Of a stretch of DNA of 64,000 nucleotides, positions 1 through 58,011 are shown piece by piece. Source of the stretch: Heptranchias perlo (Eukaryota); the NCBI RefSeq assembly GCF_035084215.1, contig NC_090342.1, positions 16,926,001-16,990,000 of the forward strand, in the 5' to 3' direction. The notes under the pieces were generated by a model that was given only the letters and a program-made list of their open reading frames with translations, did no database searches and was not told the origin of the DNA. The translations under genes were made by a program, and so were the position numbers. Each line of letters begins with the position of its first letter. The first letter of the stretch is position 1.

Positions 1-931
1 AATCAAGCGGGCTGCTTTGTCCTAGATGGTGTCAAGCTTCTTGAGTGTTGTTGGAGCTGCACTCATCCAGGCAAGTGGAGAGTATTCCATCACACTCCTG
101 ACTTGAGCCTTGTAGATGGTGGAAAGGCTTTGGGGAGTCAGGAGGTGAGTCACTCGCCGGAGAATACCCAGTCTCTGACTTGCTCTTGTAGCCACAGTAT
201 TTATGTGGCTGGTCCAGTTAAGTTTCTGGTCAATGGTGACACCCAGATGTTGAAGGTGGGGGATTCGGCAATGGTAACGCCATTTAGTGTCAAGGGGAGG
301 TGGTTAGACTCTCTCTTGTTGGAGATGGTCGTTGCCTGGCACTTGTCTGGTGTCAATGCTACTTGCCACTTATGAGCCCAAGCCTGGATGTTGTCCAGGT
401 CTTGCTGCATGCAGGCACGGATTGCTGCATTATCTGAAAGGTTGCGAATGGAACTGAACACTGTGCAATCATCAGTGAACATTCCCATTTCTGACCTTAT
501 GATGGATGGAAGGTCATTGATGAAGCAGCTGAAGATGATTGGGCCTAGGATACTGCCCTGAGGAACTCCTGCAGCAATGTCCTGGGGCTGAGATGATTGG
601 CCTCCAACAACCACTACCATCTTCCTTTGTGCTAGGTATGACTCCAGCCACTGGAGAGCTTTCCCCCGGATTCCTATTGACTTCAATTTTACTAGGGCTC
701 CTTGGTGCCACACTCGGTCAAATGCTGCCTTGATGTCAAGGGCAGTCACTCTCACCTCAACTGTGGAATTCAGCTCTTTTGTCCATGTTTGTACCAAGGC
801 TGTAATAAGGTCTGGAGCCGAGTGGTCCTGGCAGAACCCAAACTGAGCATCGGTGAGCAGGTTATTGGTGAGTAAGTGCCGTTTGATAGCACTGTCGACG
901 ACACCTTCCATCATTTAGCTGATGATTGAGA
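1..931 (-). mobile_element. Fragment of LINE family A (CR1-group RT), runs off the window start
   Basis: Near-identical to 1899-2830. ORF 201..914 has the RT motifs LDIKAAFDRVWH, GVPQGSILGP and FTDD. A frameshift lies near 250. Confidence 0.95.
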
Positions 932-1393: not shown

Positions 1394-1535
1394 CTTTTAC
1401 AAATACATAAAGGGCAAAAGAGTAACTAGGGAGAGAGTAGGGCCTCTTAAGGATCAACAAGGTCATCTATGTTTTTTTTTTATTCGTTCACAGGATGTGG
1501 GCGTCGCTGGCAAGGCCGGCATTTATTGCCCATCC

Positions 1536-4457
1536 CTAATTGCCCTCGAGAAGGTGGTGGTGAGCCGCCTTCTTGAACCGCTGCAGTCCGTGTGATGACG
1601 GTTCTCCCACAGTGCTGTTAGGAAGGGAGTTCCAGGATTTTGACCCAGCGACAATGAAGGAACGGCGATATATTTCCAAGTCGGGATGGTGTGTGACTTG
1701 GAGGGGAACGTGCAGGTGGTGTTGTTCCCATGTGCCTGCTGCTCTTGTCCTTCTAGGTGGTAGAGGTCGCGGGTTTGGGAGGTGCTGTCGAAGGAGCCTT
1801 GGCGAGTTGCTGCAGTGCATCCTGTGGATGGTACACACTGCAGCCACAGTGCGCCGGTGGTGAAGGGAGTGAATGTTTAGGGTGGTGGATGGGGTGCCAA
1901 TCAAGCGGGCTGCTTTATCTTGGATGGTGTCGAGCTTCTTGAGTGTTGTTGGAGCTGCACTCATCCAGGCAAGTGGAGAGCATTCCATCACACTTCTGAC
2001 TTGTGCCTTGTAGATGGTGGAAAGGCTTTGGGGAGTCAGGAGGTGAGTCACTCGCCGCAGAATACCCAGCCTCTGACCTGCTCTCGTAGCCACGGTATTT
2101 ATATGGCTGGTCCAGTTAAGTTTCTGGTCAATGGTGACCCCCAGGATGTTGATGGTGGGGGATTCGGCGATGGTAATGCCGTTGAATGTCAAGGGGAGGT
2201 GGTTAGACTCTCTCTTGTTGGAGATGGTCATTGCCTGGCAATTATCTGGCGCGAATGTTACTTGCCACTTATGAGCCCAAGCCTGGATGTTGTCCAGGTC
2301 TTGCTGCATGCAGGCTCGGACTGCTTCATTATCTGAGGGGTTGCGAATGGAACTGAACACTGTGCAGTCATCGGCAAACATCCCCATTTCTGACCTTATG
2401 ATGGAGGGAAGGTCATTGATGAAGCAGCTGAAGATGGTTGGGCCGAGGACACTGCCCTGAGGAACTCCTGCAGCAATGCCCTGGGGCTGAGATGATTGGC
2501 CTCCAACAACCACTACCATCTTCCTTTGTGCTAGGTATGACTCCAGCCACTGGAGAGTTTTCCCCCTGATTCCCATTGACTTCAATTTTACTAGGGCTCC
2601 TTGGTGCCACACTCGGTCAAATGCTGCCTTGATGTCAAGGGCAGTCACTCTCACCTCACCTCTGGAATTCAGCTCTTTTGTCCATGTTTGGACCAAGGCT
2701 GTAATGAGGTCTGGAGCCGAGTGGTCCTGGCGGAACCCAAACTGAGCATCGGTGAGCAGGTTATTGGTGAGTAAGTGCCGCTTGATAGCACTGTCGACGA
2801 CACCTTCCATCACTTTGCTGATGATTGAGAGTAGACTGATGGGGCGGTAATTGGCCGGATTGGATTTGTCCTGCTTTTTGTGGACAGGACATACCTGGGC
2901 AATTTTCCACATTGTCGGGTGGATGCCAGTGTTGTAGCTGTACTGGAACAGCTTGGCTAGAGGCGCAGCTAGTTCTGGAGCACAAGTCTTCAGCACTACA
3001 GCTGGGATGTTGTCGGGGCCCATAGCCTTTGCTGTATCCAGTGCACTCAGCCGTTTGTTGATATCACGTGGAGTGAATCGAATTGGCCGAAGACTGGCTT
3101 CCATGATGGTGGGGATATCGGGAGGAGGCTGAGATGGATTATCCACTCGGCACTTCTGGCTGAAGATGGTTGCAAACGCTTCAGCCTTGTCTTTTGCACT
3201 CACGTGCTGGACTCCGCCATCATTGAGAATGGGGATGTTTGCAGAGCCTCCTCCTCCCGTTAGTTGTTTAATTGTCCACCACCATTCACGACTGGATGTG
3301 GCAGGACTGCAGAGCTTTGATCTGATCCGTTGGTTGTGGAATCGCTTAGCTCTGTCTATAGCATGTTGCTTCCGCTGTTTAGCATGCATGTAGTCCTGAT
3401 TTGTAGCTTCACCAGGTTGGTACCTCATTTTTAGGTACGCCTGGTGCTGCTCCTGGCATGCTCTTCTACACTCCTCATTGAACCAGGGTTGATCCCCTGG
3501 CTTGTTGGTAATGGTAGAGTGAGGAATATGCCGGGCCATGAGGTTACAGATTGTGCTGGAATACAATTCTGCTGCTGCTGATGGCCCACAGCGCCTCATG
3601 GATGCCCAGTTTTGAGCTGCTAGATCTGTTCTGAATCTATCCCATTTAGCACGGTGGTAGTGCCACACAACACGTTGGATGGTGTCCTCAGTGCGAAGAC
3701 GGGATTTCATCTCCACGAGGACTGTGCGGTGGTCACTCCTACCAATACTGTCATGGACAGATGCATTTGCGACAGGTAGATTGGTGAGGACGAGGTCAAG
3801 TAAGATTTTCCCTCGTGTTGGTTCGCTCACCACCTGCCGCAGGCCCAGTCTAGCAGATATGTCCTTCAGGACTCGGCCAGCTCGGTCAGTAGTGGTGCTA
3901 CCGAGCCACTATTGGTGATGGACATTGAAGTCCCCCACCCAGAGTATATTTTGTGCCCTTGCTACCCTCAGTGCTTCCTCCAAGTGTTGTTCAACATGGA
4001 GGAGGACTGATTCATCAGCTGAGGGAGGACGGTAGGTGGTAATCAGCAGGAGGTTTCCTTGCCCATGTTTGACCAGATGCCATGAGATTTCATGGGGTCC
4101 AGAGTCAATGTTGAGGACTCCCAGGGCCACTCCCTCCTGACTGTGTATCACTGTACCGCCACCTCTGGTGGGTCTGTCCTGCCGGTGGGACAGGACATAC
4201 CCAGGGATGGTGATGGAAGAGTCTGGGACGTTGGCTGAAAGATATGATTCTGTGAGTATGGCTATGTCAGGCTGTTGCTTGACTAGTCTGTGGGACAGCT
4301 CTCCCAATTTTGGCACAAGTCCCCAGATGTTAGTAAGGAGGACCTTGCAGGGTCGACTGGGCTTGGTGTTTTGCCGTTGTCGTGTCCGGTGCCTAGTGGT
4401 CCGATGCCGGGTGGTCCGTCCGGTTTTATTCTTATTATGACTTTTCGTAGCGAGATT
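1536..4457 (-). pseudogene. APE endonuclease plus reverse transcriptase ORF of LINE A (about 973 codons) with one in-frame TAG at 3909-3911
   Basis: ORF-track pieces 3909..4316 and 1536..3833 are in the same frame. The frame is open upstream to a TAA at 4458-4460. EN motifs: LTNIWGL, PDIAILTES, YRPP, GDFN, LDLVLTN, SDH. RT motifs: YRPISLLS, QFGFR, GVPQGSVLGP, FADD. C-terminal WNSLP. Confidence 0.93.
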
Positions 4458-4724
4458 TTACAACTGAGTGGCTTGCTAGGCCATTTCAGAGGGCAATTAA
4501 GAATCAACCACATTGCTGTGGGTCTGGAGTCACATATCGGCCAGACCGGGTAAGGGCGGCAGGCTTCCTTCCCGAAAGGACATTAGTGAACCAAATGGGT
4601 TTTTACGACAATCCGGTAGTTTCATGGCCATCATTACTGATACTAGTATTTTAATTCCAGATTTTTATTTAATTAATTGAATTTAATTAATTAATTGAAT
4701 TTAAATTCGCCAGCTGCCGTGCCG

Positions 4725-4798
4725 GGATTTGAACTCATGACTCTGGATTTTAGTCCAGGCCTCTGGATTACTAGCCCAGTAACAAAACCACTATGCTA
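4725..4798 (-). promoter_or_regulatory. Type-2 RNA polymerase III internal promoter (tRNA-like A box and B box) at the 5' end of LINE A
   Basis: On the sense strand the A box TAGCATAGTGG lies at 4798-4788, beginning at +9 from the element start. The B box GAGTTCAAATCC lies at 4736-4725. Confidence 0.8.
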
Positions 4799-6553
4799 CC
4801 GTACCCGTGCGGAGCCACAAGAGATGGGTGAGATCCTGAATGAATATTTCACATCGGTATTTACGGTTGAGAAAGGCATGGATGTTAGGGAACTTGGGGA
4901 AATAAATAGTGATGTCTTGAGGAGTGTACATATTACAGAGAGGGAGGTGCTGGAAGTCTTAACGCGCATCAAGGTAGATAAATCTCCGGGACCTGATGAA
5001 ATGTATCCCAGGACGTTATGGGAGGTTAGGGAGGAAATTGCGGGTCCCCTAGCAGAGATTTTTGAATCATCGACAGCTACAGGTGAGGTGCCTGAAGATT
5101 GGAGGGTAGCAAATGTTGTGCCTTTGTTTAAGAAGGGCGGCAGGGAAAAGCCTGGGAACTACAGACCGGTGAGCCTGACATCTGTAGTGGGTAAGTTGTT
5201 GGAGGGTATTCTGAGAGACAGGATCTGCAGGCATTTGGAGAGGCAGGGACTGATTAGGAACAGTCAACATGGTTTTGTGAGAGGAAAATCATGTCACACG
5301 AATTTGATTGAGTTTTTTGAAGGGGTAACCAAGAAGATAGATGAGGGCTGTGCAGTAGACGTGGTCTACATGGACTTTAGCAAAGCCTTTGACAAGGTAC
5401 CGCATGGTAGGTTGTTACATAAGGTTAAATCTCACAGGATCCAAGGTGAGGTAGCCAATTGGATACAAAATTGGCTTGACGACAGAAGAAAGAGGGTGGT
5501 TGTAGAGGGTTGTTTTTCAAACTGGAGGCCTGTGACCAGCGGTGTGCCTCAGGGATCGGTGCTGGGTCCGCTGTTATTTGTTATTTATATTAATGATTTG
5601 GATGAGAATTTAGGAGGCATGGTTAGTAAGTTTGCAGATGACACCAAGATTAGTGGCATTGTGGACAGTGAAGAAGGTTATCTCGGATTGCAACAGGATC
5701 TTGATAAATTGGGCCAGTGGGCCGATGAATGGCAGATGGAGTTTAATTTAGATAAATGTGAGGTGATGCATTTTGGTAGATCGAATCGGGCCAGGACCTA
5801 CTCCGTTAATGGTAGGGCGTTGGGGAGAGTTATAGAACAAAGAGATCTAGGAGTACAGGTTCATAGCTCCTTGAAAGTGGAGTCACAGGTGGATAGGGTG
5901 GTGAAGAAGGCATTCGGCATGCTTGGTTTCATTGGTCAGAACATTGAATACAGGCGTTGGGATGTTTTGTTGAAGTTGTACAAGACATTAGTAAGGCCAC
6001 ACTTGGAATACTGTGTACAGTTCTGGTTACCCTATTATAGAAAGGATATTATTAAACTAGAAAGAGTGCAGAAAAGATTTACTAGGATGCTACCGGGACT
6101 TGATGGTTTGACTTATAGGGAGAGGTTAGATAGACTGGGACTTTTTTCCCTGGAGAGTAGGAGGTTAAGGGGTGATCTTATAGAAGTCTATAAAATAATG
6201 AGGGGCATAGATAAGGTAGATAGTCAAAATCTTTTCCCAAAGGTAGGGGAGTCTATAACGAGGGGACATAGATTTAAGGTGAGAGGGGAGAGATACAAAA
6301 GGGTCCAGAGGGGCAATTTTTTCACTCAAGGGGTGGTGAGTGTCTGGAATGAGCTGCCAGAGGCAGTAGTAGAGGCAGGTACAATTTTGTCTTTTAAAAA
6401 GCATTTGGACAGTTACATGGGTAAGATGGGTATAGAGGGATATGGGCCAAGTGCAGGCAATTGGGACTAGCTTAGTGGTATAAACTGGGCGACATGGACA
6501 TGTTGGGCCAAAGGGCCTGTTTCCATGTTGTAAACTTCTATGACTCTATGACT

Positions 6554-18172: not shown

Positions 18173-18838
18173 CCCCCATACCAATTATTAGATTATTTAA
18201 TCATGGAATTACTTCATAAATTTAACTTGTCATTGCATGAAAAAATTACTAAAATTATTTTACTTTATCTTTTCAGATCAAGACCTCTGGATTCTCGGTA
18301 AAGAGAAAAGCTGAACTTTAGGTCCTTCCCATTAAGGTATAGATCAACCATAATTCTTAGGACTGGTTACCACATCACCATTCTTCAGCTGGGACATGAA
18401 GGGAGATCATTTTGTCTCTGTGTTAGAACTACTGAATACATTCATTTCTCACACCTCCTAAAATTACTCCTAGCAAAAAACAACTGTAAGACATTGACCC
18501 TGCATTTCTGTTTTAATTTTAGGCTTCTAGCATTTGTACTTCTTTTTTCTCTTAAACATCTCCTACATATGATGGGATAACACTTTTCACTTCCAACTCA
18601 TACTTCCTGTTGAAACTTGCTTTGCAATTTCATCCTCGCAGTTTTGAAAAATTGCCGACTTGTTCCCTGAGTTGATGTTTACGTGTTTTTAAGCTGGTTG
18701 AAAGGATCAGCATGGAGTTCTCCCAGTCACAACAAAAAAGTGCTCAATGTGTGTGCACCGGGCATGGGAATTAACTAACCTTTGTAGGTTTGAGCTCATT
18801 AATTGCATGGATAGTAGCTTAACAATGGCTTGGCAGTA

Positions 18839-19627
18839 TTTTTTTTATTCGTTCATGGGATGTGGGCGTCGCTGGCGAGGCCAGCATTTATTGCCCATCC
18901 CTAATTGCCCTTGAGAAGGTGGTGGTGAGCCGCTTTCTTGAACCGCTGCAGTCCGTGTGGTGACGGTTCTCCCACAGTGCTGTTAGGAAGGGAGTTCCAG
19001 GATTTTGACCCAGCAACGATGAAGGAACGGCGATATATTTCCAAGTCAGGATGGTGTGTGACTTGGAGGGGAACATGCAGGTGGTGTTGTTCCCATGTGC
19101 CTGCTGCTCTTGTCCTTCTAGGTGGTAGAGGTCGCGGGTTTGGGAGGTGCTGTCGAAGAAGCCTTGGCGAGTTGCTGCAGTGCATCCTGTGGATGGTACA
19201 CACTGCAGCCACAGTGCGTCAGTGGTGAAGGGAGTGAATGTTTAGGGTGGTGGATGGGGTGCCAATCAAGCGGGCTGCTTTATCTTGGATGGTGTTGAGC
19301 TTCTTGAGTGTTGGAGCTGCACTCATCCAAGCAAGTGGAGAGTATTCCATCACACTCCTGACTTGTGCCTTGTAGATGGTGGAAAGGCTTTGGGGAGTCA
19401 GGAGGTGAGTCACTTGCTGCAGAATACCCAGCCTCTGACCTGCTCTCGTAGCCACAGTATTTATATGGCTGGTCCAGTTAAGTTTCTGGTCAATGGTGAC
19501 CCCCAGGATGTTGATGGTGGGGGATTCGGCGATGGTAATGCCGTTGAATGTCAAGGGGAGGTGGTTAGACTCTCTCTTGTTGGAGATGGTCATTGCCTGG
19601 CACTTGTCTGGTGCGAATGTTACTTGC
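18839..19627 (-). mobile_element. 5'-truncated LINE family A copy
   Basis: Near-identical to 1473-2265, including the 3' UTR and oligo(A). Confidence 0.95.
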
Positions 19628-21059
19628 TGGTGCAGGCTGATTGGTTTCTCAGGTGTGTGTTAGTTATGACGCAATATCCTCAGAAAGTACATTGAGTAAA
19701 ATTCACCTGCCAGTGCAGGAAAAAGGAGAGTCGAAATTAGCTGTCATTTAACAAATTCTCAGTGTGCTGAGGAAATTAACCCTCTATAAAACCTAGCTGT
19801 GAAACTATTTAACGTAACAAATATTAGCAAAACAATTAAATGATTTCTATTTCATTCGGGTTGAAATCCATCTCTGTACTATTTTTAGTGCACTGGTTGA
19901 TGCATTTGTGGCAAATTTCTATGCTTTATTTTGACAGTCATTAAATTATTTATAGTCAGCTTTGGTTCATCAGAGCTTTCTAATACTGTAGCTCCAAAGA
20001 ACATACTTATCTAGTTCAGAGTTAAAGCAATTTCACTATGCTGCAAAATCACGTTTTGACCGCTCCAAGATTAAAAATCTTAAATAAATCAGGGATAAAT
20101 TTCTGTCAGTCCTTTTTTCTCTTTTCTCACCAATTTTCCTCTCTCCTCTCTCCAATGTATTGACATGTTTCACTTATGATTTATTAAATGACAGGTGTTC
20201 TCCACCACGTTATTTATGTGCACCCGTTGATGGTGAGTGTTGGCAGACTATTTAACTATGTGGAGCATCACAGCCAAGTTGTTCCTGTCCTCACTAGATG
20301 TCATGCATATGCACCTCCAGTAGGGATTGCTGGATAGCAGTCAGGAATGGGAAGCCTGCCTTATTTTCCTCTTCCTAACTCAGTAGCACTGACACCAATT
20401 ACAGTGGCCCTACCATGGGTCTGGCTGTAGCTCAGACAAGACTGGGATTGAAACTCATTTCCTTGTCCATTTGGTTGCTATTGGATAAACTTGCTGAAAT
20501 GTTGGAGAACTCCAGTTTTGACCTTATTATTAGGCTTGCTGAGACACAGTATAGGGCTTAAAATGGATTTAACAATGCTAACAGGCTGGTAACACATCAA
20601 TTGTAAATGAAGTCATCTAGGTTTCTAATGTACTCTGTACATTTTCAATGCACTGATTATGCTAGTTTATTTGCAAAAATACAAATTTATTTCAAACGCA
20701 ATAAAATAGCACAGACAGGAAGTTAACCTGAAAGTATTAACCAGTGTGCTAAAAGAAGCGCGCAGAGTAAATTAGACTGAACAGTTACTCATGCGAAAGA
20801 CCAAAGGCAATTAAAGAACAGGAAAGATGGGCAGTTTCCAAGACTATTTTAGGTAAAGTGTAAAGGAGAATCGAAAATCTGTAACAGCTTCATAGATTGT
20901 AACTAATAATGACTAGGTCATTGCCAGCCTTGGGGTTCACCTTGGCTGGTAAAATAATGGGTGAAATATGATTTAGGAGTGTAATGTGCTCTATGCATTA
21001 AGCTGGTGTATGCATTATTTCTGTATTAGGAATAGCAACATTGTGTCAATGTTAACTTT

Positions 21060-44298: not shown

Positions 44299-45260
44299 GG
44301 GCACGTTTTTAGCATGGAGCCAGGAACTGAGCGGGTGGGTACATTATCGCGTGGGGAACCTGGAGGTCAAGTTAGCATGCTGGATTCTGCGATCGCAACT
44401 CAATTGAATGCAATTGATTTTACTTCTGGGTTTCCTGCGCGACAGCCAGCCAGATTGACAGGTTGGAAGGCTGTCGGGAGGGAAGGCAGCTGGGAGTCGG
44501 AGAGGAGGAGGGAGGGACAGATTGTGGGCCATGGAGGATATGGGTGGCGGGGAAGCCTTATGCCGGAGATGGCCAATGGGGGGAGTCTCGACCATACTGG
44601 GGGGTCTCAACCATTGTGGGGTGGGGGGGGGCTCTCGACCATGGGGGGGTTCTTGACCATGGTTTTTTTAAAAATTCATTTATGGGATGTGGGCTTCGCT
44701 GGCGAGGCCGGCATTTATTGCCCATCCCTAATTGCCCTTGAGAAGGTGGTGGTGAGCCGCCTTCTTGAACCGCTGCAGTCCGTTGGTCTCAACCATAGGA
44801 AGGGGGGAGTCTCAGCGTGATTGATGGTTTAATATCCTAACCAGCAATTTGTGAGATGGGGGTGGTTGGGGGTAATGAGAGTTTGTGATCCGATACCAGA
44901 ATTTCCACTCAGTGGTGGGGAGGAGAAGGCTTGTTGTCCTAATCTAGAATTTCTGCTATGTGGTCGTATGTTGTGGGGATACATTTGGCCTTATGGTCAT
45001 TTTTTGGGGGGTGGGGGGGAGGTTGTCTCCGGATATATACTTACTGGCTTGGTTCCCCATCTTTGATCAGTGAGTGGGTTTTGATTTTTATTTTTTGCTA
45101 AATTGAGTGGGGGCAATGTTTATTATTGTACCGGGGGTTGTAAAAAGTGATGCAATGGTGGTGCTGTAGGTGAGATATATCTTTTCATTGGTTGCAATAC
45201 TTGCTAGTTGATCTTCCATGGAATTGCACGTGGGAGTCAAAACTAATGCAATTTTTCACG
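44299..45260. mobile_element. Degenerate GC-rich non-autonomous DNA element containing a LINE A 3' tail (44668-44783, -)
   Basis: TTCTGGGTTT...GACAGCCAGCCAGATTGACAGG block is shared with the MITEs. 44680-44783 matches 1492-1590. Confidence 0.55.
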
Positions 45261-49799: not shown

Positions 49800-51838
49800 T
49801 GATGTGGAGATGCCGGTGATGGACTGGGGTGGACAAATGTAAAGAATCTTACAACAACAGGTTATAGTCCAACAATTTTATTTTAAAATCACAAGCTTTC
49901 GGAGATTATCTCCTTCATCAGGTGAGTAGTGAATGAGAGGTTCTCAAATCGCATATCTTATATTAGGCTGGGACACCATCACACCAATCAAAGGTGTCGT
50001 TGGTGTTCAGACAGGTTAGCCACGGAAAACAGTAGGTCCCAGTATGCTGAATACACAATGTGTCAAATTACACAAACAAAGAGACCCGAAAGGCAGAGAG
50101 AGAGAGAGAGAGAGAATTTCCAGTTGTATTAAAAACAGATAACTTTTTTTTCCTTGCTGGTGGGGTTACGTGTAGCGTGACATGAACCCAAGATCCCGGT
50201 TGAGGCCGTCCTCATGGGTGCGGAACTTGGCTATCAATTTCTGCTCGACGATTTTGCGTTGTCGTGTGTCTCGAAGGCCGCCTTGGAGAACGCTTACCCG
50301 AAGATCGGTGGCTGAATGTCCTTGACTGCTAAAGTGTTCCCCGACTGGGAGGGAACCCTCCTGTTTGGCGATTGTTGCGCGGTGTCCGTTCATCCGTTGT
50401 TGCAGTGTCTGCATGGTCTCGCCGATGTACCATGCTCCGGGGCATCCTTTCCTGCAACGTATGATGTAGACAACGTTGGCCGAGTCACAGGAGTATGAAC
50501 CATGCACCTGGTGGGTGGTGTCCTCTCGTGTGATGGTGGTATCCGTGTCGATGATCTGGCATGTCTTGCAGAGGTTGCCATGGCAGGTTTGTGTGGTGTC
50601 GTGGACGCTGTTCTCCTGAAAGCTGGGTAATTTGCTGCGAACAATGGTCTGTTTGAGGTTGGGTGGCTGTTTGAAGGCGAGTAGTGCAGGCGTGGGGATG
50701 GCCTTAGCGAGGTGTTCATCGTCATCGATGACATGTTGAAGGCTGCGGAGAACATGGCGTAGTTTCTCCGCTCCGGGGAAGTACTGGACGACGAAGGGTA
50801 CTCTGTTGGTTGTGTCCCGTGTTTGTCTTCTGAGGAGGTCTATGCGAATCTTCGCTGTGGCCCATCGGAACTGTCAATCGACAAGTCGAGTGTCATATCC
50901 CGTTCTTACGAGGGCGTCGTTCAGCGTCTGTAGGTGTCCATCGCGTTCCTCCTCGTCTGAGCAAATCCTGTGTATTCGTAGGGCCTGTCCATAGGGGATG
51001 GCCTCTTTGATGTGGTTAGGGTGGAAGCTGGAAAAGTGGAGCATCGTGAGGTTGTCCGTGGGCTTGCGGTAGAGTGAGGTGCTGAGGTGCCCGTCTTTGA
51101 TAGAGATATGTGTGTCCAAGAAAGAAACCGATTCTGAGGAGTAGTCCATGGTGAGTTTGATGGTGGGATGGAACTTGTTGATGTTATCGTGTAGTCTCTT
51201 CAGTGGGTCCATAGGAAGAAAATGTCGTCTATGTATCTGGTGTATAGCGTTGGTTGGAGATCCTGTGCAGTGAAGAAGTCGTGCTCGAACTTGTGCATGA
51301 AAATGTTGGCGTATTGGGGTGCGAGTTTGGTCCCCATGGCTGTTCCGTGTGTTTGGGTAAAGAACTGGTTATCGAAGGTGAAGACATTGTGATCCAGGAT
51401 GAAGCGGATGAGTCGTAGGATGGCGTCTGGAGATTGGCTGTTGTTGGTGTTGAGTACTGAGGCTGTTGCAGCGATGCCATCATCTTGGGGGATACTGGTG
51501 TAGAGTGCTGAGACGTCCATCGTGGTGAGAAGTGTTCCTGGTTCAACTGGTCCGTGGGTGCTGAGTTTTTGTAGGAAGTCTGTAGTGTCGCGACAGAAGC
51601 TAGGGGTTCCCTGTACGATGGGTTTCAGGATGCCCTCGACGTATCCAGAGAGGTTCTCACACAGTTTCCGTTGCCTGATACGATAGGATATCCAGGTGTG
51701 TTGGCTTTGTGTATCTTTGGGAGGCAGTAGAAGTCTCCCACGCGGGGAGTACGTGGGATGAGAGCACGTAGGATGCTTTGAAGGTCTGGATCGAAGGTCT
51801 TGATCAGTTTGTTGAGCTGGTGGGTGTGTTCTTTGGTC
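49800..51838 (-). mobile_element. 5'-truncated Penelope-like element (RT plus GIY-YIG) with a 3' pseudo-LTR
   Basis: RT: MDVSALYTSIP, GTAMGT, RYIDDIF, FLD, LYRKPTD. GIY-YIG: NVVYIIRC...YIGET...RMNGH...GLN. Flanked by duplicated GAATTTTAT. Confidence 0.95.
49889..49925 (-). ncRNA. Minimal type I hammerhead ribozyme motif in the Penelope pLTR
   Basis: TCAC CTGATGA A GGAGA TAA TCTCC GAAA GCTT GTGA: conserved core, stems I and II, and a palindromic AAGCTT stem III. Confidence 0.8.
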
Positions 51839-52402
51839 GAATTTTATGAGTCTGTGCTCCTGTTAATGGATGGACAATTGAGGGCAGTTCACATCCTAAT
51901 TTCCAATATGTGCTCCTGGCGGTAAGGCTCCCCACCCAGAGCATGGACTCATGAAATTAACACCATTATCTTTACCTTAATAGAAATCGATAGGGATACT
52001 TCTCATTTTTAGCAATAATGGTTAATTTCAGTCAGGCATGTAAGAAGGTGTATGCAATGTATACAAAATTATTTCAGTGTTATTTCAACAGTAACGGAGA
52101 AAGATTTGGATTGTTGTTCATTCATCGCCATTTTTACCAGAGAATAGGAAGTGGCATGTAGGGCGATGTTGTTGTCTGCAGTTAAGTCCATGGGATGCTA
52201 GCTTGTGGGGGGGGGGGAGGGGGGGAAGGTAACATGGGGTGGGGGATGGTGGCACACATCAGCTGGTGTGTATATAAAGTATAATTGTCAACTTAATCCC
52301 TGGTTTGGATGCATAGTAATTAATTTCAGCTATTTTGTGTAAACTTTACAGCTGATGCAAAGAAAAAACCCAGTTATCTACTTCCTAGGCTACAAGCAAT
52401 GA

Positions 52403-52443: not shown

Positions 52444-53523
52444 ATCCAATTTTCTGTTGCTTAATGACTATCCCTGCTATTAGAAGTCAAAATATGTGAA
52501 TGGCTTTGCCTGTCTGCTGAAGGCCTTGTTCTTTAGAATTTTTACTACACAATGATTGAAAGAACATACTTCATAATATAATGATGATCTATTTTATACA
52601 AATGGAAAAATTGCTAAATTCAGTTATACTATACTGCTACAGGCACCAGCATTATAATTTTTAATATTGTTACCTGATTTCCTCTTAGAAAATGATAAAA
52701 GAATAGCAAGCATTTTGGAACTTAAATGACACCAATTGTTTCAGAATTCTCGCATATTAACCACCCAGATATAACATATATGGTGGAATTTGTCTCACCA
52801 ATATAACATCAATACAGCCTATAGTTGCCGCAAGCAATATTCATTTTAGTTTATTAGTAGAAACTGCATTTTTACTGGTATTTGCACGGTATTGAATTTT
52901 CTTCTGACATTGTCTTTGTGTGAATTCTATGCTCTGTGTACAATTTTTGTCCCTGTTTGCAATAATTGGGAGGGTGCTCTACAAATGATTTTCCCCCTGC
53001 TTAGTCATTGTAGATGACTAGAGTAATTAATTCCAGTTGGAGGCTAGTGTTAATCCTGGGCAAACCAAATAAAGGGAATGAATAATTCAAAAGCACAGTG
53101 CACAGAACAAGAGAGCTTTCAGGCATGCTGCCATGATGTGGAAATAGCAAAGTACACAATAAAAGCAATGGTGAGATTGTGCCAATCTAGAAGAAGCATC
53201 CTGCTTTATTGAACCTACAGTGATTTAGCTGATTTTGTCTCCAATAGGTAGACTAATCAAGGAATGTGTATTAAATGCAGCCATACCTAATACTCTCTTC
53301 ATCCTGCCTCCTGGTGTGGATGGATTTGGAATGATTGACCATGTCCAACTGTCTTACATCAAATTTTACAGGAATTTGCTGATCCACTTCACTTTTCAAA
53401 AAGTCCAAACACTTACACTGTAATTCGCAAACCAAATTACGCCAAAAATGAAAAGAATGACAGTCTAAGCATGGAATAAGACAATGGCCTCTTTCAACTT
53501 CTTTACTATTGGATTGTTCATTT

Positions 53524-54052
53524 CTTTTTATTCGTTCATGGGATGTGGGCATCGCTGGCAAGGCCAGCATTTATTGCCCATCCCTAATTGCCCTTGAGAA
53601 GGTGGTGGTAAGCCGCCTTCTTGAACCGCTGCAGTCCGTGTGGTGAAGGTTCTCCCACAATGCTGTTACGTAGGGAGTTCCAGGATTTTGACCCAGCGAC
53701 AATGAAGGAACGGCGATATATTTCCAAGTCGGGGTGGTGTGTGACTTGGAGGGGAACGTGCAGGTAGTGTTGTTCCCATGTGCCTGCTGCCCTTGTCCTT
53801 CTAGGTGGTAGAGGTCGCGGGTTTGGTAGGCGTTGTCGAAGAAGCGCCTACCAGCGAGTTGCTGCAGTGCATCCTGTAGATAGTGCACACTGCAGCCACG
53901 GTGCACCGGTGGTGAAGGAAGTGAATGTTTAGGGTGGTGGATGGGGTGCCAATCAAGTGGGCTGCTTTGTCCTGGATGGTGTCGAGCTTCTTGAGTGTTG
54001 TTGGAGCTGCACTCGTCCAGGCAAGTGGACAGTATTCCATCACACTCCTGAC
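53524..54052 (-). mobile_element. 5'-truncated LINE family A copy
   Basis: Matches 1475-2000. Confidence 0.93.
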
Positions 54053-55257
54053 TACAGTATTGACATGCTGACTGGATTCAGTCATGTTGATGGGGAGAGA
54101 ATTTCTATAGAAAGACTTGTATTTGTATAGCGCGTTTCATTATCTCTGAATGTTCCAAAGCACTTTACAGCCAATGAAGTACTTTTGAAGTCTGGTCACT
54201 GTTGTAATGTAGGAAATGTGGCTGCCAAATTGCGCACAGCAAGGTCTCATGAAAAGCAATGTGATAATGATCTGTTTTGGCTGAGGGACAAATATTGGCC
54301 AGGACATTGGTGCTTAATCCTTGACTTTTACAAATTTATCATTACTTGACCTATATTTAGCCCACAACCAACATCACTAAAACAGATTACCTGGTCATTT
54401 ACCTTATTGTTGTTTGTGGGACTTTGCTGTGCGCAAATTAGCTGCTGTGTTTCCCCACTCTCAACAGTGACTACACTTCAAAAGTACTTTATTGATTTTG
54501 AAGTCCTTTGGGGCATTTTGAGGATGATAAATGCAAGTTCTTTCTTTTCTCTTTCTTAATGTCTTTGCTTTTGGTCTCTATGCTCCTGTATATAAAACCT
54601 AAAATGTGATTTTTTTTTAATGGCTTTATGTACTTGCATTTGCAACCTGTAAAGCCTTGTTAGCATTGCTAGGCTTCAATACAGAGATTATTGTTGACTT
54701 TTTTCTATCCAGAATTGATGCCAAATCCATCTATCCTTGTGTTCCAGAGACATATTGGTAAACCTCTACTCAATGGGTATAAAGTCATGCTATGGGCAGA
54801 TGGTGGGTCATTCCCAGTCTGCAACAGACCCGTAAACCTGATTGCAACAGCACTTTACATTCCTGAAGTCATTATTGAGAGCAATCTGCTTCATTACTTC
54901 TCAGCTTCATTTACCTAGGATATAATTGCATTTTTGCAACAATTTTATCCAAAGATTCCTTCGTTAGTATAAGAGTTCGGGATTTGCCTGTTTTCCAACA
55001 AAAGTTATTTTTCTGAATCATATCTTTTTCACTTTTTGTATATTGGGTGGTATATCAGCAAGATACCTCTGTAGGCAACTGTAATCAAGACAAATGTGAT
55101 GCAAAATTGACCGTAATGTTTGGTGAGAATCTGGAAAATTTGTGTGGCATGCTATTGGGCAAGCCCAGGGTCTCCCCATGCCTAATTCAATAAATGATAA
55201 CAAGCCCTGCATTTGAATTTCTCCATGCAAGGGATAGAATTCCAGGCAAAGATAATA

Positions 55258-58011
55258 GGTCAGAATTTGCTAGCAAAATAATGGCGAGTTTAATGCACAT
55301 GCCGTGATTAATGTGTAAATCGTTCAGCTATTTGTGGTGAGGAAGAGATACCCTGTGAGTTGCAAATCTTTACAAATTGCTGGACGATTTGGGCCGCTCC
55401 ACATTAGCCTCACGAAAATGGCAGCTCGGATCAACCACCCCGTGCCTTTCAAGAAATTGCTGCATTTGCACGTTAATTACCAGTTAAACTCGTGGCAGAA
55501 AGTTACGGCTGGTACTTAACAGTATAAGTACCCTTTTAATGACAAGATTTGCAATGCTACTCAACCTCTCCGGCCCAGAAAGGGAATAGTTGAAACTGTG
55601 GAGCCCCATTCCTGCAGGTAGTAAATTGTTCTTTGAGATTGAGGCACTAGTCAAAAATAAGGAGGCATATGACATGCATAGGCAGCTGGGATCAAGTGGA
55701 TCCCTTGAAGAGTATAGAGATTGCCGGAGTAGAGTTAAGAGAGAAATCAGGAGGGCAAAAAGGGGATATGAGATTGCTTTGGCAGATCAGGCAAAGGTGA
55801 ATCCAAAGAGCTTCTACAAATACATAAAGGGCAAAAGGGTAACTAGGGAGAGAGTAGGGCCTCTTAAGGATCAACAAGGTCATCTATGTGCGGAACCACA
55901 AGAGATGGGTGAGATCCTGAATGAATATTTCACATCGGTATTTACGGTTGAGAAAGGCATGGATGTTAGGGAACTTGGGGAAATAAATAGTGATGTCTTG
56001 AGGAGTGTACATATTACAGTAAGGGAGGTGCTGGAAGTCTTAACGCGCATCAAGGTAGATAAATCTCCGGGACCTGATGAAATGTATCCCAGGACGTTAT
56101 GGGAGGTTAGGGAGGAAATTGCGGGTCCCCTAGCAGAGATATTTGAATCATCCACCGCTACAGGTGAGGTGCCTGAAGATTGGAGGGTAGCAAATGTTGT
56201 GCCTTTGTTTAAGAAGGGCGGCAGGGAAAAGCCTGGGAACTACAGACCAGTGAGCCTGACATCTGTAGTGGGTAAGTTGTTAGAGGGTATTCTGAGGGAC
56301 AGAATCTACAGGCATTTGGAGAGGCAGGGACTAATTAGGAACAGTCAGCATGGTTTTGTGAGAGGAAAATCATGTCTCACAAATTTGATTGAGTTTTTTG
56401 AAGGGGTAACCAAGAAGATAGATGAGGGCTGTGCATTAGACGTGGTCTACATGGACTTCAGCAAAGCATTTGACAAGGTACCGCATGGTAGGTTGTTACA
56501 TAAGGTTAAATCTCATGGGATCCAAGGTGAGGTAGCCAATTGGATACAAAATTGGCTTGACGACAGAAGACAGAGGGTGGTTGTCGAGGGTTGTTTTTCA
56601 AACTGGATGCCTGTGTCCAGCGGTGTGCCTCAGGGATCGGTGCTGGGTCCGCTGTTATTTGTTATTTATATTAATGATTTGGATGAGAATTTAGGAGGCA
56701 TGGTTAGTAAGTTTGCAGATGACACCAAGATTGGTGGCATTGTGGACAGTGAAGAAGGTTATCTAGGATTGCAACGGGATCTTGATAAATTGGGCCAGTG
56801 GGCCGATGAATGGCAGATGGAGTTTAATTTAGATAAATGTGAGGTGATGCATTTTGGTAGATCGAATCGGGCCAGGACCTACTCCGTTAATGGTAGGGCG
56901 TTGGGGAGAGTTATAGAACAAAGAGATCTAGGAGTACAGATTCATAGCTCCTTGAAAGTGGAGTCACAGGTGGATAGGGTGGTGAAGAAGGCATTCAGCA
57001 TGCTTGGTTTCATTGGTCAGAACATTGAATGCAGGAGTTGGGATGTCTTGTTGAAGTTGTACAGGGCATTGGTGAGGCCACACTTGGAGTACTGTGTACA
57101 GTTCTGGTCACCCTATTATAGAAAGGATATTATTAAACTAGAAAGAGTGCAGAAAAGATTTACTAGGATGCTACCGGGACTTGATGGTTTGACTTACAGG
57201 GAGAGGTTAGACAGACTGGGACTTTATTCCCTGGAGAGTAGGAGGTTAAGGGGTGATCTTATAGAAGTCTATAAAATAATGAGGGGCATAGATAAGGTCG
57301 ATAGTCAAAATCTTTTCCCAAAGGTAGGGGAGTCTATAACGAGGGGGCACAGATTTAAGGTGAGAGGGGAGAGATACAAAAGGATCCAGAGGGGCAATTT
57401 TTTCACTCAAAGGGTGGTGAGTGTCTGGAACGAGCTGCCAGAGGCAGTAGTAGAGGCGGGTACAATTTTGTCTTTTAAAAAGCATTTGGACAGTTACATG
57501 GGGAAGATGGGTATCGAGGGATATGGGCCAAGTGCAGGCAATTGGGACTAGCTTAGTGGTATAAACTGGGCGACATGGACATGTTGGGCCGAAGGGCCTG
57601 TTTCCATGTTGTAACTTCTATGATTCTATGATTCTATGATTCTATGATTTTTAAAATTTTAGATTTAAAATTTTTATATTTTTTTCTTCCTTTACCTTTC
57701 TGTCTTTTTTTTGCTCTCCCTTAATCCAATCTACCTCTCCCTCTCTCTATTTCTCTTTCTGTACTTGATTTGACTCTAATTCACCCTATTTTCTTTTCCA
57801 TCATTCCTTTCTCAATCCTTAAATATTATTTGTTTAAGGAGATACCCTGTTGGTCTCATTGTTCACCAAGATCCCAGATGCCTTGGCGCCTGTTATCGGC
57901 TTGCACTTCCAACAATTTGCAGCACAAAAAATTTTCGAGCGGAAGGGTGCGGGAAAAAATCTAACTCACATGATATGCCGTGAGATGCCCCACTCCAGCA
58001 AATTCTGGGCC
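55258..58011. mobile_element. MITE-like element (same family as 7110-7894) split by a young CR1
   Basis: Ends are GGTCAGAATTTGCT and AGCAAATTCTGGGCC. Confidence 0.7.
55635..57649 (+). mobile_element. Young 5'-truncated CR1 LINE (family B) with an uninterrupted RT frame to 57551
   Basis: ORF 55590..57551 has no stops and all RT motifs. It ends in a (TTCTATGA)4 tail and is highly similar to 4807-6553. Confidence 0.97.

Follow-up and report, generated by a model that had tools for sequence, protein, structure and literature searches.

The sequence examined here is a window of 64,000 nucleotides (nt) from Heptranchias perlo (RefSeq assembly GCF_035084215.1, contig NC_090342.1, positions 16,926,001 to 16,990,000), and all positions below are those of the window. 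On its reverse strand, at 1472-4806, lies a long interspersed nuclear element (LINE), here called family A, which encodes an APE-type endonuclease and a reverse transcriptase (RT). The forward strand, antisense to this element, is free of AAAA over 1420-4783, a gap of 3364 nt that is the longest in the window (the next longest measures 1376 nt). The original prediction, made by eye, had reported such a gap between 1482 and 4783, with 4784-4787 as the only run, and had read the corresponding lack of TTTT on the sense strand as selection for RNA polymerase III (Pol III) to read through, an enzyme that in vertebrates terminates at four or more T. The gap was found as described, and begins already at 1420. 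What is distinctive about family A is a combination: a head carrying a tRNA-type promoter, a graded avoidance of T-runs, and an open reading frame (ORF) that lacks an AUG start and is under selection.

The family A element and its copies

The window copy is full-length and measures 3.33 kb including its poly(A) tail (1472-1481). A search of the same genome with the 5' 507 nt returned 2946 candidates and 40 scored matches at 97-100%; all 39 matches that were fetched proved near full length, aligning over nearly the whole element at 96-99%, with a common 5' end and unrelated flanks. The column majority of 40 full-length copies (these 39 and the window copy) is 3325 nt long, with a mean divergence of 0.98%. 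An APE endonuclease and an RT in one ORF, together with dispersed copies, an A-rich 3' tail, 5' truncations and the lack of terminal repeats, mark family A as an APE-type LINE, that is, a non-LTR (non-long-terminal-repeat) retrotransposon. The window copy sits within a CR1 copy, whose left part ends at 1471 and whose right part occupies 4807-6551 on the forward strand; both junctions match an uninterrupted CR1 copy near 55860-55905 (97% identity between the CR1 copies), and the target duplication is at most 1 bp. A separate short interspersed element (SINE) inserted beside a LINE was considered and ruled out, because head and LINE lie together inside a single CR1 copy and the same unit is present at thousands of sites.

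The tRNA-type head occupies 4707-4806 (reverse strand, as are all parts of the element), contains a duplicated anticodon-arm segment, and has a 5' end identical in all complete copies. It carries an A box, TAGCATAGTGG, from element nt 9 (4788-4798), exact in 34 of the 39 young copies and found in older subfamilies too, and a B box, GAGTTCAAATCC, from element nt 71 (4725-4736), exact in 37 of 39 and identical in the majority of an ancient subfamily; we take the two to match the respective consensus sequences of Pol III promoters. The element thus begins 8 nt before its A box, an arrangement that presumably resembles that of SINEs. The tRNA model of Rfam matched weakly at 4743-4798 (16.1 bits, under the gathering score of 29), no Rfam family reached gathering level in the window, and none reached E<=1 in 15 loci. 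ARAGORN reported no tRNA gene at the head with default settings; at a lowered threshold it made 67 calls, mostly spurious, which were not used.

The remaining 5' untranslated region (UTR; 4458-4706) consists of an AT-rich linker followed by a conserved body also present in the short SINE-like forms. Short upstream frames opening with AUG occur in this UTR, and a hairpin lies at its end just before the ORF. Visual comparison shows one such frame, of about 31-34 codons (window about 4530-4634, reverse strand; majority nt 173-277), in the young UTR body as well as in the ancient one. The single ORF (1536-4457) is 973 amino acids (aa) long from stop to stop in the majority, and its first in-frame Met is residue 250; in the window copy the frame is cut short by a stop at 3909-3911. 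The APE-type endonuclease domain (3737-4340; Pfam PF03372, motif positions) lies entirely 5' of this Met, and the RT domain follows at 2130-2876 (Pfam RVT_1, E=5e-37). An AATAAA is located about 45 nt before the tail (1522-1527), with further ones at 4664-4669 and 4425-4430.

The sample drawn with the 5' query is headed by construction, and therefore two further samples were taken. Among the first 40 of 5050 exact matches to a UTR motif, 32 were linked to the ORF and eight were short forms made of head, UTR and tail; 23 of the 32 ORF-linked loci extend to within 13 nt of the element 5' end. From 3362 matches to an ORF-leader motif, 40 were fetched and 38 were usable (L416 and L420 were dropped); these 38 older copies comprise 15 that are 5'-complete and 23 that are truncated into flanks. 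The UTR-ORF junction has 3120 exact matches in the genome, so the family amounts to thousands of copies. The ancient subfamily has the same head, UTR and ORF start, differs from family A by 7% (150 differences in 2156 called columns, from 51 of 52 loci that could be projected), and its copies lie about 11% from their own majority; past aa 250 this majority rests on 3-6 copies and contains false stops, and that part was left out of use. Every subfamily examined begins with a tRNA-type head bearing A and B boxes, and in three subfamilies that differ in age, head, UTR, ORF and poly(A) move together as a unit. Contigs from four organisms cover all 30 bins of the element, one run showing loose ends at the same 5' boundary. 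As a side observation, a shark gene model for an aldo-keto reductase (P0088) contains a long in-frame piece of the family A ORF (27% of the query covered), which is either an exonisation or a gene-model error.

In the RT tree, family A falls in a 96/96 clade of 12 rows with nine database proteins (P0001-P0090) and the related locus L193, apart from the two CR1 rows of this genome. Membership in the vertebrate CR1 group, to which the neighbouring family belongs, was ruled out by this tree and by the identity of about 30% to CR1 families; the relatives with which its RT groups share 38-43% identity. A search with PF09004 gave no matches, and the viral collection held no relative of family A. According to passages of PMC6740152, CR1-Zenon elements have a single ORF and a poly(A) tail, as does family A; this likeness is one of description, and the CR1-Zenon label is a lead. 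A CR1-Zenon-like LINE has been annotated in the whale shark, as mentioned in part of bioRxiv 10.1101/443036.

Depletion of T-runs on the sense strand

The 40-copy majority contains no run of four or more T (T4) and seven T3 runs, against 20 runs of four or more A, 12 of C and six of G. Thirty-one of the 40 copies have no T4 and nine have one, which in one of these nine is in flank register. The lone TTTT of the window copy (4784-4787), inside the head, is found in 2 of 40 copies, where the majority reads TTATG, so that it is a post-insertion or sub-lineage mutation, nearly the copy-specific change that had been suggested. Over the whole element, T4 runs number 0 against 3.06 expected (P=0.025) or 4.3 under a mononucleotide null (P=0.012), T4 or TVTTT motifs 1 against 5.5 (P=0.008), and T3 runs 7 against 16.4 (P=0.0003). 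Within the ORF, the absence of T4 is not significant against codon shuffling (1.94 expected, P=0.089) or a dinucleotide null (1.44, P=0.20), and is so against a mononucleotide null (3.31, P=0.036). T3 or longer runs in the ORF number 5 against 12.2 expected, a count reached in 0 of 1000 codon shuffles (dinucleotide null 9.9, P=0.036). The T3 deficit is thus a stronger signal than the absence of T4, which alone is modest evidence for a Pol III reading.

These counts bear on several claims of the original prediction. Its rough expectation of about four T4 runs agrees with the mononucleotide null, and its wording of the gap as suggestive rather than decisive remains apt. The comparison it proposed with synonymous-codon shuffling came out divided, with a T3 depletion beyond the null and a T4 absence that is not significant in the ORF alone. 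The window contains four partial copies of family A, at 1-931 (reverse strand) and, as 3' fragments, at 18836-19627, 44659-44783 and 53521-54053 (runs counted over 18830-19630, 44650-44790 and 53515-54056). The prediction's statement that AAAA is also absent from the other family A copies holds for three of them; it fails for the fragment at 44659-44783, where an A5 at 44670-44674 (T5 on the sense strand) directly precedes the poly(A) tail.

The choice of synonymous codons points in the same direction. At synonymous C/T sites, T is used in 5 of 41 cases where TTT would arise, versus 192 of 482 elsewhere (P=3e-4), and the matching test for A is flat (P=0.54). T use falls in steps with the length of the run that would result (0.43, 0.32, 0.13 and 0/2); without Phe codons, T stands at 2 of 22 TTT-making sites (P=0.0013). 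This graded fall is specific to T, with none for A, C or G, and T-runs are depleted on the sense strand only. The majority of the older subfamily likewise has no T4, and the 19 runs present among its 38 copies are spread over 16 sites.

For comparison, 160 related loci were collected, of which 104 had a usable ORF. None of the 104 is without T4, and their summed T4 count (1765) is close to expectation (1805). The context odds ratio is 0.23 in family A, while the relatives have a minimum of 0.40 and a median of 0.875; their pooled synonymous T use is flat (0.66, 0.66, 0.64, 0.64), and three LINE controls from the same genome show no graded fall either. The CR1 and Tx1-like ORFs of this genome hold 3-10 T4 runs (3 and 4 in two partial CR1 frames), including six in a Tx1-like ORF with 20.5% T. 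On the T3 ratio and the odds ratio, the depletion in family A is the strongest among the 104 relatives and the three same-genome controls, as had been predicted for the relatives.

Some further observations were made on these loci. Two distant T-rich relatives (L251:3501-5534 and L235:3405-5486) have T4 counts of 1 against 8.4 and 4 against 11.7 under codon shuffling, and no head was seen in either, their 5' ends being undefined. Many GTDB metagenome-assembled genomes behind the loci L190-L269 contain eukaryotic LINE contigs, that is, host contamination. Many near-identical Tx1-like LINEs with intact ORFs of 1311-1319 aa were encountered (G000 C38, C13, C725, C1626, C424; L340, L341), and the spacing of several of them, about 7 kb apart, suggests tandem or site-specific arrays. 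In the window itself, a Penelope-like element with RT and GIY-YIG pieces (50166-51862, reverse strand) has a sense strand that is likewise poor in T4.

Selection on the reading frame and its start

A frame of at least 973 aa is kept in 9 of the 40 copies. Between the young and ancient majorities, the endonuclease (206 codons) differs by 20 synonymous versus nine non-synonymous codon changes, the basic leader before it by five and four, and leader indels between subfamilies are multiples of three that keep the frame. Purifying selection acts on the part of the ORF upstream of its first Met, and the substitution pattern of the endonuclease together with the frame-keeping leader indels makes it likely that this region is translated. 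The first Met lies beyond the whole endonuclease, and a stop immediately precedes the leader in the young family, so that the start would fall within the first few codons. Nine AUGs are present in the first 350 nt and none leads in frame into the ORF before the endonuclease, and ordinary cap-dependent scanning would therefore fail.

A Met precedes the endonuclease in 36 of 45 relatives. The best relative starts M-A-T-K where family A reads L-A-T-K, which hints at a lost start codon, a match of three residues that could be due to chance. No splice joint supplying an AUG was found among the best 15 of about 800 joints. A 76-codon overlapping upstream frame opens with AUG in family A; the ancient copies suggest ACG at this place by eye, and the frame was therefore not relied on.

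The lack of an AUG start and the SINE-type head could also be accounted for if family A were a long SINE-like element without autonomy, a passenger whose copying depends on a sibling LINE that has an AUG and no head. The results are largely incompatible with this explanation, which we hold to be very improbable: against it stand the synonymous excess in the endonuclease between headed subfamilies, the frame-keeping leader indels and the nine copies with a whole frame. Nor was an alternative common 5' end found among the 38 older copies picked by the ORF motif, and no other young family of the clade appeared among 40 loci picked by variant RT motifs. Searches of this genome with variant motifs for a head-less sibling LINE returned only family A copies, CR1 copies and old fragments.

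Transcription of family A and the origin of its short forms

Transcription of the whole element by Pol III, followed by translation without cap or AUG, offers the simplest common account of the fixed 5' end, the promoter boxes, the shortage of T-runs, the loss of the AUG and the successful deletion forms described below. We lean slightly towards the view that the RNA of family A is made by Pol III and translated independently of cap and AUG, and selection for Pol III read-through appears to be the best single explanation of the T-run deficit, at the level of an explanation rather than a demonstration. In this mechanism TFIIIC would bind the A and B boxes and Pol III would start at the first G, selection would have removed terminators from 3.3 kb, and the RNA would end at a T-run at or past the tail. 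Ribosomes would enter via the structured UTR and start at a non-AUG codon among the first few codons after the last stop, and the protein would copy its own RNA by target-primed reverse transcription; SINE-like short forms would arise by repeated internal deletion, retaining promoter and tail. The polymerase, the RNA ends and the start codon in this scheme are inferred from the sequence.

The evidence for this reading is not uniform, and a series of observations weighs against it. Besides the non-significant T4 count in the ORF, 2 of the 104 relatives are as low as family A by z-score. Most relatives are far richer in T and so only three are matched in composition, and these have 1, 3 and 3 T4 runs. 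Similar, mostly weaker slopes of synonymous T use are seen in two relatives low in T that lack their 5' ends, L193 (0.45/0.31/0.30/0.14) and L112 (0.42/0.32/0.15/0.27); L193 belongs to the same clade as family A, begins with AUG and carries T-runs in the 3' UTR. The dinucleotide TT is itself below expectation (77 versus 85.7), and overlapping windows with four T in five are not significantly reduced (3 versus 6.2, z=-1.3). The only TVTTT-type (moderate) terminator motif of the element, TCTTT at 4238-4242, is exact in 32 of 39 young copies and is a gain of the youngest subfamily, 31 of 37 older copies having CCTTT. The linker that follows the B box has, among copies of the ancient subfamily, a T-run of three or fewer in 16 of 26 cases and of four or more in 10 of 26 (mode 3), and the projected ancient majority contains one TTTT there. 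Shared variants avoid T3- and T4-creating sites only weakly (0 of 264 versus 26 of 2375 sites), in a test of low power in which about 2.5 were expected by hand count, which is not significant. Several T-run statistics were tried, and the strongest concerns TTT, which according to passages of PMC8466645 terminates little by itself in mammalian assays; the same passages give a halt of 50% of B2 transcripts at TCTTT and of 65% at TTTT in human cells. They also describe T-runs before A-runs in B2 as growing longer with age, and such a lengthening may explain the ancient linker runs, a T4 already in the source being another possibility. Before the tail the family A majority shows one T and no fixed 3' terminator, and no internal ribosome entry site or ribozyme family was found in the element by Rfam at E<=10. 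Known natural Pol III RNAs are far shorter than 3.3 kb. The proposed selection for read-through is thus supported in part, by the fixed head with its boxes and by the T-run depletion, and is weakened by the ORF T4 count, by the trend in L193 and L112 and by the TCTTT gain.

Several of these points would fit a model in which RNA polymerase II (Pol II) makes the long coding RNA, starting at a promoter inside the 350-nt UTR; the head would still belong to the element, its boxes would serve the short forms or be a relic, and the T deficit would reflect the U-poor composition that C-rich members of the clade typically have. Passages of PMC5786205 assign autonomous LINEs to Pol II and SINEs to Pol III, and the slopes of L193 and L112, the TT deficit and the gain of TCTTT are as this alternative would have them. 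Among copies, the A and B boxes are not measurably better kept than the ORF, a measure that mostly reflects decay after insertion. Against Pol II transcription stand the strength of the depletion relative to all relatives and same-genome controls, the AUGs that would defeat cap-dependent scanning, and a 5' end 8 nt before the A box, as is the case in SINEs. Features that a Pol II RNA might avoid are not depleted (nine pyrimidine tracts versus 5.3 expected, three donor-like motifs versus 2.8, and two AATAAA within the first 380 nt of the element), which counts for Pol III. Pol II transcription is, in our judgement, the most serious alternative, and a rather unlikely one.

A further possibility, which we consider improbable, is that family A is carried in host read-through RNA and that its fixed 5' end is made by processing, with the tRNA-like head as the signal for a cut by RNase P or by a ribozyme. 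Ribozyme-headed LINEs are known, with ribozymes like that of hepatitis delta virus (HDV) in several of them, and R2 is translated in a cap- or AUG-independent manner. A 5' end that is fixed whatever the flank would follow from processing, and the lack of an AUG would suit an uncapped RNA. Two AUG-bearing relatives have UTR motifs that look HDV-like by eye (L110, upstream of 950, and L190, upstream of 1091), a likeness to the HDV-type ribozymes of other LINEs for which Rfam gave no match; if these UTRs do hold ribozymes, the failure of Rfam to report them would mark a limit of its sensitivity, to which the negative ribozyme search in family A is also subject. The predicted fold argues against processing at a tRNA-like structure, the head pairing with nt 145-193 in a long hairpin (nt 7-193, z=-3.2) with no cloverleaf and an unformed acceptor stem, and T-run avoidance is not predicted by a processing model. 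Eight of the 38 older copies (L398, L399, L402, L410, L414, L417, L418 and L419) are 5'-truncated at nt 202-221, a zone that adjoins this hairpin, as if reverse transcription stalled there. Ribozyme-headed LINEs (R2, L1Tc/ingi and Perere-3) resemble family A in their defined 5' end, as described in parts of PMC8501958, and differ in the nature of the 5' module, which in family A is tRNA-like.

The head also distinguishes family A from its relatives: A and B boxes were found upstream in 0 of 49 near-full-length relatives, six of which have less than 100 nt upstream. In its short forms the UTR (nt 319-396) is fused to the 3' region at a wide variety of positions close to the end (L076, L077, L088, L091, L093, L108 as well as many of L360-L389). 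The junction 319|3268 is common to three loci (L081, L086 and L308), from which it follows that this form multiplied as a SINE. By appearance the short forms are internal deletions of family A that arose repeatedly, some of which would have spread as SINEs. At the 3' end, T4-T9 directly precedes the poly(A) tail in 4 of the 39 other young copies (L042, L049, L052 and L068), and by eye such runs are commoner in old copies (many of L360-L389); they could be 3' terminators or, by analogy with B2, an age-related extension of T.

Among known systems, tRNA-derived SINEs (SINE2), bipartite SINEs assembled from the ends of LINEs among them, likewise start with a head that carries A and B boxes, and their layout of head, body and LINE-type tail, as given in passages of PMC5786205 and PMC7245038, is exactly that of the family A short forms. 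The difference is that family A is 3.3 kb long and carries a selected 973-codon ORF between body and tail, only the short forms being non-coding, and that the head here belongs to an autonomous element of which the short forms look like deletions. As for the lack of an internal terminator, another SINE2 character, the young and old majorities have no T4, the youngest subfamily has its one TCTTT and the ancient subfamily its linker run; passages of PMC4494074 use internal oligo-T to exclude Pol III. The family A body shows no likeness, by eye, to the Deu, Meta or UCON3 central domains in the alignments of PMC7245038 that were compared. The T+ SINEs (B2, Dip and Ves), as described in part of PMC8466645, likewise have an AATAAA near the 3' end and variable T-runs before the tail, which family A has in some copies, but family A has a single T there in its majority, is many times longer and is coding. 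Another parallel to the short forms is Persaeus, an internal-deletion derivative of CR1-Zenon that also consists of a 5' UTR and a 3' end; the sections of PMC6740152 that treat it give it no tRNA homology and no Pol III promoter, and the difference from both elements is that family A has A and B boxes and no AUG start. No paper describing an autonomous LINE with a tRNA head was found in a literature search that did not extend to most subscription papers or to Repbase and Dfam, which may hold this consensus.

Whether family A is in full a long-lived, protein-coding LINE with a captured tRNA promoter, which has a 3.3-kb Pol III messenger RNA translated from a non-AUG start by a novel mode of internal ribosome entry in its 5' UTR, and which gives rise to SINEs by loss of its middle, is to us an evenly balanced proposition. 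The prevailing view has natural Pol III transcripts as short and non-coding. If the proposition is true, a coding RNA of 3.3 kb is within the reach of Pol III in vivo, a vertebrate would possess a compact element for cap- and AUG-independent translation, and there would be a simple route to the origin of SINEs, in which the divide between LINE and SINE is erased. Even with Pol II as the polymerase, the AUG-less start and the head-bearing architecture would need explaining. A head kept through several subfamilies, a lost AUG and thinned T-runs make family A a directly testable exception to the rule that LINEs are transcribed by Pol II and SINEs by Pol III.

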